Shown: piece after piece, positions 24,809 through 30,653 of the stretch
How the letters are laid out: the number at the start of each line of letters is the position of its first letter
Position numbering within the stretch: the stretch's first letter is position 1
DNA from: an uncultured Candidatus Saccharibacteria bacterium
GTDB taxonomy: Bacteria; Patescibacteriota; Saccharimonadia; Saccharimonadales; Saccharimonadaceae
Assembly (NCBI GenBank): GCA_964600285.1
Contig: CAZRIZ010000001.1
Location: 188 to 64,187 of the forward strand
Reading direction: 5' to 3'
Length of the DNA: 64,000 nt
Position numbers and translations under genes: made by a program
Notes under the pieces: model-generated
Told to the model about the DNA's origin: nothing
What the model saw: only the letters and a program-made list of their open reading frames with translations
Database searches by the model: none

Positions 24809-24886
24809 TTAATTTTTATAAAAAAGGATTTAATGAAAGCTCGGAGCATTTTTCTAAAGTGCTTAAGTAGTATATAATAACCACAT

Positions 24887-26158
24887 ATGCTTTTTGAAAA
24901 ACTAAATGCTAGGAAAAAAGGGGACAAAGCCGGCAATAACTCTATTGTTGGTCTTGACATTGGAACTGAATATGTCAAAGCTTTGATTGCTCAGGTTGAC
25001 GGTGACACTTTGCGCATTGTTGGTGTCGGACGAGTTAAACAAAAACAAAGCGATATGCACGCAGGCGCTATTGCCGATATTTCTGGCGTAGTGCAAAATT
25101 GTGAGCAAGCCTTGCATCAGGCTGAACAGCAGGCTGGGTTCCAAGCCAAGAGAGTTGTTATCGGTATTTCTGGTGAGCTGGTTAAGGGTGTAACTCATAC
25201 GATTCGGTATCGTCGGCCTCAACCAGACAAAGAGCTAGATGAGCCAGAGATGAACTACATTATTGATAAAGTTCAAGAGCGAGCCTTGGTTAAAGCGCAA
25301 CGCCAAATTGGTTTAGAAACTGGTAATGAAAACGTAGAAGTTAAATTAGTTAATTCAGCTTTAGTAAGCTTACATATTGACGGCTACAAGGTATCAAATC
25401 CGATTGGTTTTCAAGGAAAAGACGTGGCAGTGCAAATTTATACGGCATTTGCCCCAATGGTGCATATTGGCGCTTTAGAACGAGTGGCCGATGAACTGGC
25501 TCTTGACTTGATTGCGGTGGCGGCAGAGCCTTTTGCGGTATCACGTGCTGTAATCGGCACTGATGCCAGTAGCAGTTTCACGGCGATACTGCTCGACATA
25601 GGTGGCGGCACCACGGATATCGCTGTGGTTAATGACGGTGGAGTTGAAGGCACAAAAATGTTTAGTATCGGTGGACGAAGTTTCACCAGAACGATATCAA
25701 GAGAACTTAATGTGTCTATTGAAAAAGCAGAAGAGATTAAGTTATCTCTAGATAGCGCCGAGCTTGATGACAAGGTTCGTCTTAGCGCCATCAGAGCCGT
25801 GAAGAAAACTCTTAGCGTTTGGCTAGCAGGGATTGAACTAGGGCTCGACGAATTTAACGACATAGACCAGATGCCTAACCAGATTTGGCTGTGTGGTGGT
25901 GGTGCTAGTCTGGAAATGCTATTTAACACGATAGCCGATCATAAATGGCCAGAAAGTTTACCGTTTAGTAAGCAACCAGTGGTTAAGCGGGTTTTACCTA
26001 GTGACGTAATTGATATTAAAGACACAACCGATATGATTAATGATCATACCTTTACCACAGCTATGGGGCTATTGAGGGTTGGCCAGGACACTATGCAGAT
26101 TGATAATTCAGACGATTTGAATTTTAAAGAAAAATTAAATAAAATATTGAGAATCTGA
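24887..26158 (+). CDS. ftsA: Cell division protein FtsA (actin-like ATPase)
   Basis: It has GLDIGTEYVKA (phosphate 1) and DIGGGTTDIAV (phosphate 2), an SHS2-like insert, and a C-terminal amphipathic tail (LNFKEKLNKILRI). Confidence 0.85.
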   Translation: MLFEKLNARKKGDKAGNNSIVGLDIGTEYVKALIAQVDGDTLRIVGVGRVKQKQSDMHAGAIADISGVVQNCEQALHQAEQQAGFQAKRVVIGISGELVKGVTHTIRYRRPQPDKELDEPEMNYIIDKVQERALVKAQRQIGLETGNENVEVKLVNSALVSLHIDGYKVSNPIGFQGKDVAVQIYTAFAPMVHIGALERVADELALDLIAVAAEPFAVSRAVIGTDASSSFTAILLDIGGGTTDIAVVNDGGVEGTKMFSIGGRSFTRTISRELNVSIEKAEEIKLSLDSAELDDKVRLSAIRAVKKTLSVWLAGIELGLDEFNDIDQMPNQIWLCGGGASLEMLFNTIADHKWPESLPFSKQPVVKRVLPSDVIDIKDTTDMINDHTFTTAMGLLRVGQDTMQIDNSDDLNFKEKLNKILRI

Positions 26159-27774
26159 TGAGTAAAGAAGTAGTTTATATTGATATCAACGATGATATTA
26201 CTAGCGTAATTGAAAAGATTAAGCAGTCTAAGGAAAAGATTGTGGCTTTGGTGCCGCCAAAACAGATTGGACTATTGCAGAGTGCAGTCAATCTGCAACT
26301 CTTAGCGCGTGCTGCTGGAAATGCTGGAAAGTATGTTGTAATTATTACATCAAAAGATTCTCTAATGAAATTGGCGGCCATGGCAAAGATACCAGTAGCC
26401 AAGACACTGCAGTCAAAGCCAGTGTTAGCCAAATTGCCAATCTACTCAGCTGAAGACGATACAATTGACGGCAAAACAATGCCTATAGGCGAGCTGGCGT
26501 CTGGTAATCGTGAATTTAGTCCTGAGGTTTCGACTGATGATGTGATTGTTGATCCAACTAAGCCGATTGAAACTGGCGCAAGTGCTGAAAAGAAGAAGAT
26601 AAACATTCCAAAGTTTGCTAATGTCCGAAGTAAGATTATCCTAGGTGTAGTCGGTGCTTTACTGTTAGTCGGTGTTGTGCTCTGGGCTGTAATTATCGCT
26701 CCACGTTCAGTTATAAATATCAAAACACGCACCAAGCTAGTTAACATTAATCAGACTATTTCCTTGACGGAAGATTCCCTAAAAGCAAGTAACGAAGAAA
26801 ATATTGTTCATGCTCAAAGCCAAATACTAGAAAAGACTCTCTCGCTTGAGTTCGCTGCTTCTGGAGAAAAAAATATCGGAGAAAGGGCGACTGGCTCGGT
26901 TAGTTTTTCAAACTCATCAGATAAGGCCCGCACGGTAGTCTCAGGAACGCGATTCACATCAGCAGGTGGCAAAGTTTTCACTCTTAATGAAACCGTATCG
27001 GTTCCGGCAGCTGGCTTGACGTGGTGCAACGGAAAGCCGTGTGCTGACCCTAGCGCCGCAAAGGGCTCGGTAACTGCCGTTGAGCCTGGGGCTACTTATA
27101 ATGGAGAGACTGGTGGGCTGAGTGGCGGTCCTAGTGGCGACTTTGAAGCCAAACTCACTGCCGCTACATCTGGTGGCGTAGATAAGATTGTCAAAGTTGT
27201 TACTCAAGAAGATTTCGATCAAGCCAAGGCTAAATTAGCTGATGGTGGCAATGATACGGCTGTTAATGAACTCAAAAACAAATTTGACGCTTCAGCTGTG
27301 GTTGTCAGGGAAAGTTTGCGGATTACGGCTGGCGAAGTTGTGAGCTCTATAGAAATTGGAGAGGAAGCTCCTGAAGGCAAGTTTACCGTAGAACAACCGG
27401 TCAAGTACTCTATGTTAGCGGTGGTGCGCAATCGAATTGTCGACTACCTGAACTTTTTGGTTCTGAAACAAGAAGGTGATACTAAGCTGAAGCAAAAAGT
27501 TTACGAATCTGGTGATGACCAAATTCAGTTTGCTAATTTCTCGGCCCAAGATGATAAGTTGTCTGTTAAAGTTATTACGCAAATGCGTATCGGTCCGGAT
27601 ATTGACGTTGATGAAATCAAAGAGTTCGCTCAGGGCAAAGGTTACGGAGAAGTCAAAGACCGCTATGAGCTAATTGAAGGCATTGAGAGTGTTGAAGTAG
27701 AATTTTGGCCGATGTGGGTGCGTCGTGTGCCTAAAAAGGCTGATAAAATACTTGTAAACATAAATCTTGAATAG
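26158..27774 (+). CDS. Hypothetical bitopic membrane protein (538 aa), translationally coupled to ftsA
   Basis: The ATG overlaps the ftsA TGA (TGATG). It has a cytoplasmic domain of about 160 aa, one TM segment (IILGVVGALLLVGVVLWAVIIA) and an external domain of about 350 aa. I recognise no family. Confidence 0.7.
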   Translation: MSKEVVYIDINDDITSVIEKIKQSKEKIVALVPPKQIGLLQSAVNLQLLARAAGNAGKYVVIITSKDSLMKLAAMAKIPVAKTLQSKPVLAKLPIYSAEDDTIDGKTMPIGELASGNREFSPEVSTDDVIVDPTKPIETGASAEKKKINIPKFANVRSKIILGVVGALLLVGVVLWAVIIAPRSVINIKTRTKLVNINQTISLTEDSLKASNEENIVHAQSQILEKTLSLEFAASGEKNIGERATGSVSFSNSSDKARTVVSGTRFTSAGGKVFTLNETVSVPAAGLTWCNGKPCADPSAAKGSVTAVEPGATYNGETGGLSGGPSGDFEAKLTAATSGGVDKIVKVVTQEDFDQAKAKLADGGNDTAVNELKNKFDASAVVVRESLRITAGEVVSSIEIGEEAPEGKFTVEQPVKYSMLAVVRNRIVDYLNFLVLKQEGDTKLKQKVYESGDDQIQFANFSAQDDKLSVKVITQMRIGPDIDVDEIKEFAQGKGYGEVKDRYELIEGIESVEVEFWPMWVRRVPKKADKILVNINLE

Positions 27775-27776
27775 AG

Positions 27777-28175
27777 ATGATAAAAAAATACTTAGCTTTG
27801 GACTATGGCGATAGTCGTATTGGTGTGGCTCTGGGAGACGATCAAGTCAAAATAGCGGTTCCAATGGACGCAATTACAGTTGACGGCTCGGAGATTGATC
27901 AAATTACTAAGCTTACTCGATACGAAACGGTAGAAGCTATTGTGGTCGGTTACCCCAGAAATCAGTCAGGCGAGGCCACGAAGCAGACTGCCGTGGTTGA
28001 GGGCTTCGCTGACAGATTGAGAAAAGAATTTCCGGCGGTCGTTTTTCAAGACGAGTCTGTCACCAGTGTATTGGCAGAAGCTCGTCTTAAGAGTTACGGC
28101 AAGCCTTACACCAAGGGTGATATCGATTCTATGAGCGCGGTAATTATTCTAGAGGATTTTTTGGAACACAGATGA
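27777..28175 (+). CDS. ruvX: Holliday-junction resolvase-like nuclease RuvX/YqgF
   Basis: YLALDYGDSRIGVALGD...VVGYPRN..G. Confidence 0.9.
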   Translation: MIKKYLALDYGDSRIGVALGDDQVKIAVPMDAITVDGSEIDQITKLTRYETVEAIVVGYPRNQSGEATKQTAVVEGFADRLRKEFPAVVFQDESVTSVLAEARLKSYGKPYTKGDIDSMSAVIILEDFLEHR

Positions 28176-29251
28176 AAAAAGACACTATTGGAATTAGAAG
28201 ACAACGAATGCCATGGTGGGCGTGGTTGATAATTAGCCTGTTTGTTGTAGGCGGATTGGCAACTGGCGGTGCGATTTATTGGTATCATGACAGCCTAGAG
28301 GCCGTTGGCGTCGTTAGTGAAACAGAAGACTTTGAAGTTTTGCGCGGTGAGAATGTTTCAGAAATTGGTCAAAAGTTATTAGACAAAGGGTTCATTAAGA
28401 ACGTTAAATCTTTTGAGCTGTATAATCGAATTAATAAAACCAGCGGCAAACTACAGGTTGGCAATTATTCGCTGAATAAGAGTATGACTGTAGCCGATAT
28501 TGTTACTAAATTAACAACTGGTGAATCTGAACAGATGTCTGTTACATTTTTTCCTGGTGCGACACTCAATTTTCGTCACAGCGCCACAGATACTACGCCG
28601 ACTCATCGTGAAGCTCTGAAACAAGTTGGCTTTAGTGATGAACAAATTGACGAAGCCTTTTCAAAGTCTTATTCTGATCACGCACTGTTTAAGCTCTTAC
28701 CTGACGTGACTAGTTTAGAGGGTCTAATCTATGGCGACACTTTCTCTTACGGTGTGGGCTCGTCAATCGATACCGTCTTAAGATACAATTTCGACCACTA
28801 CTATAACACTATAGTCAAAAATGATTTAGTCAAAAAATACGAAGCGCAAGGCTTATCTCTGTATGATGGCATAAAACTAGCGTCGATTATTGAACGCGAA
28901 GCTAAAACTGAGAAAGACCGTGCTCAAGTAGCCCAGGTTTTTCTTAGACGTATGAAGCTTGGTCAGCCATTGGGCTCTGATGTGACTTATCATTATGCCA
29001 ACAGGTTGGCCGGAACTGCTAACGATGGGCGAGTGGATTCGCCATACAATTTACGCAAATACACCGGTTTAACCCCAACGCCAATTTCTACACCAGGCGA
29101 GACATCTCTTTTGGCTGTGGCTAATCCTGCCGAAGGTGATTACCTTTACTTCTTAGCTGGTGATGATAATAAAACCTATTTTGCTCACACTAATCAAGAG
29201 CACGAGCGTAATATTAGGGAGCATTGTAAGATTGGCTGTTCAACCTGGTAG
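28172..29251 (+). CDS. mltG: Endolytic murein transglycosylase MltG (YceG family)
   Basis: ATGA overlap with ruvX. It has an N-terminal TM segment, the LASIIEREA motif and a YceG-like C-terminal region. Confidence 0.9.
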   Translation: MKKDTIGIRRQRMPWWAWLIISLFVVGGLATGGAIYWYHDSLEAVGVVSETEDFEVLRGENVSEIGQKLLDKGFIKNVKSFELYNRINKTSGKLQVGNYSLNKSMTVADIVTKLTTGESEQMSVTFFPGATLNFRHSATDTTPTHREALKQVGFSDEQIDEAFSKSYSDHALFKLLPDVTSLEGLIYGDTFSYGVGSSIDTVLRYNFDHYYNTIVKNDLVKKYEAQGLSLYDGIKLASIIEREAKTEKDRAQVAQVFLRRMKLGQPLGSDVTYHYANRLAGTANDGRVDSPYNLRKYTGLTPTPISTPGETSLLAVANPAEGDYLYFLAGDDNKTYFAHTNQEHERNIREHCKIGCSTW

Positions 29252-29477: not shown

Positions 29478-30653
29478 TTGCGTAAAAAGCGATCTGACAA
29501 GCGTTGGCAAAAAGAAATTGCACGGCAAATTGCCAAAAGATCTGGTCCTAAGCTAGTTTCTAGTAAACGGTGGGCCACTTTGTGGTTGGCGCCGTTCGTA
29601 CTTATTTTAGTGATAATTGGTATTAATTACCTACCTAGCCAATCAGCTAAACTAGAGGCTAATGATATGCAATCTGTTGTGTCTGATGTCTCAAATAATC
29701 CAATAGCACCTCTGGCGTCAAAGGTTGATAAGGTGGTAGAAACTGGCTTAGTGGCTGATTTGGCCAAGACGGCGAACCTACCTATTGCTTTGAGCGCTGC
29801 TAACTTGGCGACATCGGCTGAAATTCAAGCCTCTTCGACCCAGAAGGCTAGCCCAGTTATCGACAAGCCGGAGCTGGTTAGCCTGAGTGGCAACCGCCAA
29901 GAGGTAGTTACGCACTTAGTCGCTGACGGTGAAACAATTGACCAGCTTGCTTCTCGCTATGATATTTCTGCTCAAACTATTAGATGGGCGAATAACTTGA
30001 CTGGCGACGCCATAGAGGTTGGTAAAGAATTAAAAATCCTGCCAGTTGACGGCGTTCACTATAAAGTAAAGGCGGGCGATAATTACGAAAAAATCGTGGC
30101 TCGCTATGGCTCAAGTGAAACGCAGATTGTGGCTTTTAACGATTTAGAACTGACCAACCTGGTAGCTGATTCTATGATTGTGATTCCGGGTGGCGAATTG
30201 CCCGAAACGGAGCGACCTGGGTACAAACCGCCTAAACCCGTTTACAATCCGACACAGTCCCAAAATCCTTTGTTTAGGCCGTCTAATGGCATGGGGGTAA
30301 AATATTATCCGTGGGGCTGGTGTACTTGGTATGCTGCTTATCGATTCCCACAATTAAACGGTGGCAAGGAAATTGGCAACTGGGGTAACGCTAACACTTG
30401 GGATAACTCGGCTTATGGCACCCCTGGTTTCTCGGTTAGCTCGACTCCGTCAGCTGGAGCGATATTCCAGACTGATTTTGGTAGCACTCGTGGTTTAGGC
30501 CATGTTGGTATAGTCGAAAGTGTTGAGTATAATGAAGACGGCTCTATCGCTTCAATTCGAGTTTCTGATATGAATGGTTTTAGTGGCTGGGGGCAGGTTG
30601 GCTACGGCACATGGACGGCTGATAAATTCTCTAAGTATAAGTATATTAAATAA
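29478..30653 (+). CDS. LysM-CHAP peptidoglycan hydrolase
   Basis: TTG start and an N-terminal TM segment. Two LysM repeats are present (THLVADGETIDQLASRYDISAQTIRWANNL and VHYKVKAGDNYEKIVARYGSSETQIVAFNDL). The C-terminal CHAP domain has the motifs GWCTWYAAYRF...GHVGIVESV. Confidence 0.85.
   Translation: MRKKRSDKRWQKEIARQIAKRSGPKLVSSKRWATLWLAPFVLILVIIGINYLPSQSAKLEANDMQSVVSDVSNNPIAPLASKVDKVVETGLVADLAKTANLPIALSAANLATSAEIQASSTQKASPVIDKPELVSLSGNRQEVVTHLVADGETIDQLASRYDISAQTIRWANNLTGDAIEVGKELKILPVDGVHYKVKAGDNYEKIVARYGSSETQIVAFNDLELTNLVADSMIVIPGGELPETERPGYKPPKPVYNPTQSQNPLFRPSNGMGVKYYPWGWCTWYAAYRFPQLNGGKEIGNWGNANTWDNSAYGTPGFSVSSTPSAGAIFQTDFGSTRGLGHVGIVESVEYNEDGSIASIRVSDMNGFSGWGQVGYGTWTADKFSKYKYIK

Follow-up and report, generated by a model that had tools for sequence, protein, structure and literature searches.

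To our knowledge, few membrane-bound actin systems are known in bacteria: FtsA, MreB and PilM/GspL. FtsA carries subdomain 2B as its FtsZ-binding part, while PilM holds PilN by the cytoplasmic N-terminus of PilN, a protein with an 'INLLP'-type N-terminal peptide and a small ferredoxin-like periplasmic domain. The Baseplate J family of phage wedge proteins has a cellular relative in TssF of the type VI secretion system. Here we describe a gene pair in a 64,000-nucleotide stretch of DNA (the window) from contig CAZRIZ010000001.1 of a 717-kb Saccharibacteria assembly, within the Patescibacteria or candidate phyla radiation (CPR). The first gene encodes a 423-residue FtsA-like protein with an actin fold, and the second a 538-residue single-pass membrane protein, its partner. 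We propose, with a probability of about 60%, that the pair makes up a conserved envelope module, distinct from FtsA-FtsZ of the divisome and from PilM-PilN of the type IV pilus, in which the actin docks on the cytoplasmic head of the partner and the outer domain of the partner carries the core function.

An initial annotation of this DNA had described the pair as ftsA coupled to an unknown protein instead of ftsZ. Both open reading frames (ORFs) lie where it had placed them, and their junction is the sequence TGATG, in which, as it had noted, the stop and start codons overlap: the TGA of the actin gene (26156-26158) and the ATG of the partner gene (26158-26160) share one base. The identification as ftsA did not hold. 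FtsA is the best family match of the 423-residue protein and PilM the second, yet its score against the FtsA equivalog model TIGR01174 was 128.6 bits, below the cut-off of 175.85, and that against the PilM model TIGR01175 was 60.4 bits, below the cut-off of 133. The FtsA model aligned only at its positions 2-258 of 371, compared with 3-369 for true FtsA; the C-terminal third of the window protein, where FtsA has the FtsZ-binding subdomain 2B, was left unaligned, which we count in favour of our reading. A tree was built from 25 FtsA-like, 17 true FtsA and 8 PilM sequences (the last including E. coli HofM), with E. coli MreB as outgroup. It resolved three clades, with Shimodaira-Hasegawa-like approximate likelihood ratio test (SH-aLRT) support of 100 for PilM, 100 for FtsA (including E. 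coli FtsA) and 99 for the FtsA-like proteins, and left the relative branching order of the three unsettled. The initial annotation had expected a grouping with FtsA rather than with PilM or MreB; the window protein indeed lies outside the PilM clade, but it lies outside the FtsA clade as well. It represents a third clade within the FtsA/PilM family, distinct from the FtsA of the divisome.

The genome also encodes a canonical FtsA. On another contig (C17), a gene with a full-length match to the FtsA model (341.9 bits) stands directly upstream of ftsZ (415 bits), with adk and map before it. All 25 genomes checked had, away from the pair, a further and weaker FtsA-family match (about 25% identity), and in all 15 whose region was examined it proved to be a true FtsA within the FtsA clade. 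The candidate identity of the window gene as the real ftsA was thus ruled out by the adjacent ftsA and ftsZ on C17, by its score below the cut-off and by its separate clade. In public records such proteins are named 'cell division protein FtsA', 'FtsA domain-containing protein' or 'PilM', and the partner 'baseplate J/gp47 family protein' or 'hypothetical'. The first of these names and the best family match are what speaks for taking the 423-residue protein as the cell's FtsA and the 538-residue protein as a stoichiometric divisome partner that replaces FtsZ; given the findings above, we consider this reading extremely improbable.

The AlphaFold2 (AF2) model of the FtsA-like protein had a mean predicted local distance difference test score (pLDDT) of 87.7 and a predicted template-modelling score (pTM) of 0.88. 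Foldseek matched it best to the FtsA structures 7q6i and 7q6f (E 1e-31, template-modelling (TM) score 0.72-0.83), followed by PilM (E 1e-23); the top 14 matches were all FtsA structures, with TM scores of 0.63-0.83. The FtsA-type actin fold extends over the whole chain, and the SHS2/1C subdomain is part of that fold in FtsA. The phosphate-1 motif DIGTE (D24/G26/T27) and the phosphate-2 motif DIGGGTTD (D237-D244), both of which the initial annotation had recognised, are kept together with the adenosine motif LCGGG (G337/G338), and all three are invariant or nearly so across 33 orthologues. Such conservation makes it very likely that nucleotide binding has been retained and that the FtsA-like protein binds ATP. 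The C-terminal tail FKEKLNKILRI, described earlier as amphipathic, is basic and moderately amphipathic, with a helical moment of 0.47 that ranks 31 of 409 windows in the protein; in most orthologues the tail is top-ranked, with a moment of 0.5-0.73.

Since PilM is the second-best family and fold match, and PilM binds the cytoplasmic N-terminus of the bitopic protein PilN, we considered a role for the pair like that of the PilM-PilN alignment subcomplex, in a pilus or in a competence or secretion machine. The cultured relative Southlakia epibionticum has, in the same position, a gene that carries the annotation 'pilus assembly protein PilM' (Wang et al. 2023, PMC10633639). The genome already holds two PilM genes, however (148.1 and 129.5 bits against the cut-off of 133), one of them beside pilC, and the PilM clade is separate with a support of 100. 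Pilin, ATPase and platform genes are missing from the vicinity of the pair, which instead has alaS, ruvX, mltG, a LysM-CHAP gene and obg as neighbours; of these, alaS, ruvX and mltG recur beside it in Chloroflexota and Dormibacterota. The folded head and 360-residue ectodomain of the partner are also unlike PilN. On this evidence a PilM-PilN-like role is improbable.

The pairing of the two genes is conserved. In 24 of 25 genomes spread across the phylum, the best homologue of the 423-residue protein (31-67% identity) was encoded directly upstream of a homologue of the partner, on the same strand, so that the association with an actin gene on which the initial annotation had staked its case was borne out elsewhere. 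Its description of the pair as tightly coupled also stood: the gap was 5 nt or less in 14 of the 24, and in more than half of the genomes the stop codon of the first gene overlaps or directly adjoins the start codon of the second. The arrangement is not due to chance. Its placement within an alaS-ruvX-mltG block, with a LysM-CHAP gene downstream, was confirmed by Pfam and NCBIfam annotation of the neighbours, and the recurrent order is mnmA-alaS-[pair]-ruvX-mltG-LysM/CHAP-obg. Among 20 CPR genomes, alaS was upstream of the pair in 17, ruvX downstream in 11, mltG in 10 and both ruvX and mltG in 9. Mean identity to the window proteins was 46% for the FtsA-like protein, 38% for the head of the partner and 27% for its ectodomain.

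A search of a library of 1.84 billion proteins recovered 6,015 cluster representatives of the partner family at E <= 1e-3. With a single-sequence search, the partner was found in 334 of 401 genomes sampled across the phylum. Many of the 67 apparent absences are false negatives of that search: an ectodomain profile recovered the partner in 12 of 15 apparent absentees, and some were divergent copies immediately behind the FtsA-like gene. Long open frames in five genomes (G189, G172, G353, G074 and G035) contained no fusion of actin, transmembrane helix and ectodomain, no wide search for fusions having been made; they were artefacts of in-frame upstream sequence or carried a long non-actin N-terminus.

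The distribution of the FtsA-like protein was further scanned with one genome per species. Orthologues formed a band at 32-68% identity (E < 1e-67), with a clean gap to the band of true FtsA at 24-29%. Within the CPR, this band included Saccharibacteria, Howlettbacteria, Peribacteria, Moranbacteria and Dojkabacteria. Outside the CPR, it took in Limnocylindria together with other Chloroflexota, Dormibacterota and Natroniella sp. ANB-PHB2, whose genome is complete. At most of these non-CPR loci, tblastn recovered the gene order of the window, with alaS, the FtsA-like gene and a partner-like gene followed by ruvX and mltG. At the two Dormibacterota loci the partner was undetected by tblastn: in one, the contig breaks off within the FtsA-like gene, and in the other no match was obtained. 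The presence of the same block in non-CPR phyla indicates that the module is old and not CPR-specific, contrary to the earlier suggestion that it is lineage-specific. The Limnocylindria and other Chloroflexota, the Dormibacterota and Natroniella that carry the block are free-living and not known to be epibionts.

Natroniella sp. ANB-PHB2 is a cultured Halanaerobiales isolate, in which the FtsA-like gene, the partner-like gene, ruvX and mltG lie in the same order (locus L098, NZ_CP175562.1:1687380-1696459), and might be used to study the module in a free-living organism. FtsA-like orthologues of 45-51% identity were also present on two contigs labelled 'Bdellovibrionales' and 'Polyangia' (L088 and L108), which are probably mis-binned CPR or Chloroflexota contigs.

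The AF2 model of the partner had a mean pLDDT of 85 and predicts a type II single-pass topology with the N-terminus inside and the C-terminus outside; no signal peptide precedes the folded head. Of the layout given in the initial annotation, the single transmembrane helix and the external domain were recovered, whereas the cytoplasmic N-domain of about 160 residues resolved into a head of about 95 residues and a disordered linker of about 60 (Table 1). No Pfam match was obtained for the head in searches with 10 heads. Its conserved residues include D12, D13, T15, S42 and N45. The order of secondary structure elements in the head model fits a STAS core. In S. epibionticum, in which the gene order is mnmA, alaS, SEML1_0656, SEML1_0655, ruvX, mltG, a gene for a LysM protein and obgE, the domain parser DPAM assigns the head of the syntenic protein as SpoIIAA-like with a score of 0.888, and parses SEML1_0655 into a SpoIIAA-like head (6-105), a beta-barrel, a G3P-like domain and gp6 C-terminal domain III (PMC10633639 Table S2).

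Foldseek comparison of the window ectodomain with the PDB returned baseplate wedge proteins with E-values from 5e-7 to 5e-4. Among them were the cyanophage A-1(L) baseplate (8kea_b, E 5e-7), phi812 (9euf_C) and Mu gp47 (9ki1), each at probability 1.0, as well as XM1 and Pa193; over these five, E-values reached 2e-4 and probabilities were 0.97-1.0. A match to the beta-barrel domain of GlxA was also returned. In BFVD, many Baseplate J-like proteins matched the ectodomain over about 350-370 columns, with E-values down to 9e-9 and a probability of 1.0. Sequence-level matches were weak: PF21110 was matched by the partner at E 3e-4, and PF04865 at E 5e-3 with 16.6 bits, below the gathering threshold of 21.1. 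Precomputed PF04865 matches are present in some orthologues, and a profile of 47 orthologues searched against solved structures matched only Mu gp47 (E 0.22). Across 30 diverse orthologues, the ectodomain residues that never vary are P, G, G, N and D. These give no catalytic signature and point to a structural role, and the ectodomain is probably a structural scaffold rather than an enzyme.

A baseplate-wedge fold on the cell surface could also belong to a CPR epibiotic device for host attachment or feeding, or to the remnant of a domesticated phage or contractile injection system, the more so as both families are flagged as enriched in Patescibacteria and growth on the host requires the partner (PMC10633639). 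Against this, the same block occurs in Limnocylindria and other Chloroflexota, Dormibacterota and Natroniella; no sheath, tube, spike or other tail genes lie nearby; and, from phylum to phylum, the pair stays within a housekeeping operon. We judge this reading very unlikely.

The head of the partner and the actin gene are frequently lost together. In one large family (f31), the FtsA-like gene was absent from 16 of 16 genomes and the partner was kept, directly after alaS in the one locus inspected. A hidden Markov model (HMM) of the head scored 90-130 bits in 24 of 24 partners encoded behind an FtsA-like gene, and 5 bits or less in 12 of 12 f31 partners examined, all of which kept the transmembrane helix and the ectodomain. 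In place of the head, the f31 partners have a disordered cytoplasmic tail whose beginning, at or close to the predicted N-terminus, is a conserved peptide, MRD[IV][KRT] (e.g. L032:4500-5954 (-), L033-L043); by analogy with the N-termini of FtsN and PilN, this may be a short docking peptide for another protein. Headless forms of the partner were found in six further genomes that lack the actin gene. Most lineages that lost the FtsA-like gene kept the ectodomain protein and lost its head. Genomes of f31 also encode a second, shorter baseplate-like ectodomain paralogue (e.g. G159:C3:225585-226619 and G049:C18:16291-17385), with frames mostly of 377-476 residues (one of 804) that are 24-28% identical to the main copy.

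Transposon sequencing (Tn-seq) of S. epibionticum separates the two genes in a similar way. SEML1_0655, a 1671-bp gene annotated 'baseplate J/gp47 family protein', received the HMM calls non-essential, essential and essential (NE/ES/ES) at T0, T1 and T2, with insertions falling from 48 in the input to 25, 7 and 2, and is classed as class II essential (PMC10633639 Table S1). The actin gene SEML1_0656 (KEGG K03590) was called NE/NE/GD, that is, dispensable with a growth defect, and both genes are flagged as core families enriched in Patescibacteria (PMC10633639 Table S1). The nearby mltG was non-essential in the same screen, and the main text of the study names neither FtsA nor baseplate (PMC10633639). 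The Tn-seq data and the phyletic pattern agree that the ectodomain protein has a core function, to which the actin and the head would be a detachable cytoplasmic add-on.

The same data could be taken to mean that the two genes are conserved neighbours in a housekeeping operon that act independently, without a physical or regulatory link. The Tn-seq calls differ, the partner being essential and the actin not (PMC10633639); the ectodomain protein persists in many lineages that have no actin gene; and alaS-ruvX-mltG-obg synteny is conserved on a large scale anyway. Against independent action stand the presence of the head in 24 of 24 linked orthologues, its absence from 12 of 12 in f31 and from the six further headless forms, and the overlapping or abutting start and stop codons in over half of the genomes. 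We regard it as unlikely, while granting it some weight.

We favour a two-gene envelope module, which would work as follows. The FtsA-like protein very likely binds ATP and probably sits on the inner face of the membrane via its basic amphipathic C-terminal tail. From there, we infer, it docks on the cytoplasmic head of the partner (residues 1-95), and docking would position, cluster or regulate the baseplate-like ectodomain on the outer face. The outer domain would carry the core envelope function, which is essential in one cultured relative, and the FtsA-like protein would be a detachable organiser on the cytoplasmic side. The principle would be akin to that of FtsA-FtsN, PilM-PilN or MreB-RodZ. 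That ruvX-mltG and the LysM-CHAP gene steadily accompany the pair hints, through guilt by association only, at growth or remodelling of the wall; a link to peptidoglycan growth, like the part in the divisome or elongasome suggested by the initial annotation, would be speculative. A more far-reaching form of the proposal is a third membrane-actin system beside the FtsA divisome and the MreB rod complex, found in Patescibacteria, Chloroflexota and Dormibacterota, in which polymers of the FtsA-like protein, through a STAS-like adaptor head, would pattern an extracellular ring or lattice of a domesticated baseplate-wedge protein as an essential organiser of a monoderm-type envelope; we hold this to be doubtful.

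Several observations weigh against the module as proposed. Two genomes (G127 and G025) have a weak head match without an adjacent FtsA-like gene, and the rule of co-loss of head and actin is therefore imperfect. The tail of the window protein is moderately amphipathic, with a shuffle fraction of 0.19, and the divergent family f26 has no C-terminal tail. Global TM scores of the ectodomain with baseplate proteins were only 0.15-0.23, because the domain arrangement differs; the likeness is in the domains and not in their arrangement. The S. epibionticum genes were matched to the window genes from synteny, gene length and annotation, not from sequence comparison. In that species the actin gene is dispensable, although both genes would be expected to be essential if the essential function of the partner needed the actin.

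Coordinates of the locus are collected in Table 1. The ruvX gene starts 2 nt past the partner stop codon and is overlapped by mltG by 4 nt, and both probably share an operon with the pair. Just upstream of the FtsA-like gene, a TATAAT box is a putative promoter whose position fits a leaderless or near-leaderless operon transcript; the box is unlisted in the consensus scan because no -35 hexamer matches. A second promoter-like site, inside the FtsA-like gene near its 3' end, may drive a separate transcript of the partner gene. If active, such a promoter would explain why S. epibionticum tolerates insertions in the upstream gene despite the essential partner downstream.

Table 1 Features of the FtsA-like/partner locus in window coordinates.
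Feature	Coordinates	Strand	Evidence or remark
Two ORFs between mnmA and alaS, 606 and 209 aa	20366..22863	+	no Pfam family
alaS, 627 aa	22925..24808	+	Pfam/NCBIfam neighbour annotation
TATAAT box, putative promoter	24873..24878	+	8 nt 5' of FtsA-like ATG; read from sequence
FtsA-like actin-fold ATPase paralogue, 423 aa	24887..26158	+	ORF call; TIGR01174, tree, AF2, Foldseek, motifs
Promoter-like TTGATA-16-TATGAT	26010..26037	+	inside FtsA-like gene 3' end; consensus scan 10/12 positions, consensus match only
Partner, single-pass membrane protein, 538 aa	26158..27774	+	ORF call
Partner: cytoplasmic head, aa 1-95	26158..26442	+	beta-alpha-beta-alpha-beta-alpha order; AF2 pLDDT ~80-93
Partner: disordered cytoplasmic linker, aa 96-155	26443..26622	+	AF2 pLDDT <50 over residues 96-153
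Partner: single transmembrane helix, aa 156-179	26623..26694	+	AF2 helix; hydrophobic window from aa 156
Partner: extracytoplasmic domain, aa 180-538, plus stop codon	26695..27774	+	baseplate-wedge fold (Baseplate J/gp6/gp47); confidently folded 183-538
ruvX + mltG	27777..29251	+	packed tightly behind pair
ruvX	27777..28175	+	Pfam RuvX 111.7 bits
mltG	28172..29251	+	Pfam YceG 217.4 bits
LysM-CHAP hydrolase	29478..30653		downstream of mltG

Further upstream, the smaller of the two ORFs between mnmA and alaS encodes a Pro/Val-rich protein with a C-terminal transmembrane helix. In several relatives (L008, L010, L011 and L013) mnmA and alaS are only about 60-550 nt apart, so the intervening stretch in the window looks like a lineage-specific insertion. 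The alanyl-tRNA synthetase encoded by alaS is itself short, and Pfam matches only its catalytic and second additional domains; the alaS ORFs of two relatives (L031 and L032) are equally short, at 593-603 residues.

The relation of the module to other morphogenesis genes was also examined. MreB is absent from this genome and its family f1, and also from families f2, f32 and f58, whereas most other CPR genomes have two MreB copies, with or without the pair. The candidate role of the module as a replacement for MreB was ruled out by these two copies, and the module is independent of MreB. The two MreB genes of most other Patescibacteria often lie 1.5-25 kb downstream of the FtsA-like/partner pair; in one genome (G271), mreB starts at 628055, behind a pair whose last position is 626536. 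As to a possible replacement of FtsQ/DivIB by the partner, the FtsQ/DivIB model PF03799 gave matches in 12 of 27 CPR genomes with the module and none in this genome, although the model is insensitive and matched only 5 of 14 control genomes.

A full-text literature search on FtsA paralogues or baseplate J proteins in the CPR or Saccharibacteria, in which some papers were judged by title or abstract, returned no paper on the pair. In the searched literature both genes are listed only in the supplementary tables of PMC10633639, and the function of the pair is undescribed. The pair would add a further clade of FtsA-type membrane actins with its own dedicated transmembrane partner. The ectodomain protein is found in nearly all Patescibacteria sampled and was called essential in the one CPR species with genome-wide Tn-seq, and the module may explain envelope organisation in minimal cells, many of which lack MreB. 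The ectodomain would, moreover, be a clear example of how a phage baseplate fold can enter a core cellular role. Saccharibacteria are now genetically tractable, which makes the function of the module directly testable.

Among known systems, the divisome pair FtsA-FtsN, represented by the structure of Vibrio maritimus FtsA with FtsN 1-29 (7q6i), resembles the module in the whole-chain fold and the conserved ATP motifs of the actin, in a basic C-terminal tail, which is moderately amphipathic in the window protein, and in the pairing of an actin with a single-pass membrane protein that it would probably contact at the cytoplasmic N-terminus. The FtsA-like protein differs from FtsA in its separate clade, its score below the equivalog cut-off, its unaligned C-terminal third and its position away from ftsZ; the partner differs from FtsN in having a folded head of 95 residues rather than a short peptide, and a baseplate-like ectodomain rather than a SPOR domain. 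PilM-PilN (2ych, 5eou) shares with the module an FtsA-family actin encoded directly upstream of a bitopic partner. It is set apart by the low score of the window protein against the PilM model, the separate clade, the lack of pilus genes nearby and the genome's own PilM elsewhere.

RodZ comes closest to the layout of the partner, with a folded cytoplasmic head, a linker, one transmembrane helix and a beta-rich outer domain, and the head of the partner would likewise be the binding site for a membrane-associated actin. That head is not a helix-turn-helix domain, as it is in RodZ; the actin is of the FtsA type rather than the MreB type; and the module is found both with and without MreB. With the Baseplate J wedge proteins (T4 gp6, Mu gp47 and P2 gpJ), the partner shares the folds of its ectodomain domains. 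Unlike these proteins, whose Pfam threshold and global arrangement it falls short of, the partner is membrane-anchored and faces outwards, has no tail or baseplate genes around it, and is encoded by a chromosomal core gene in several phyla.

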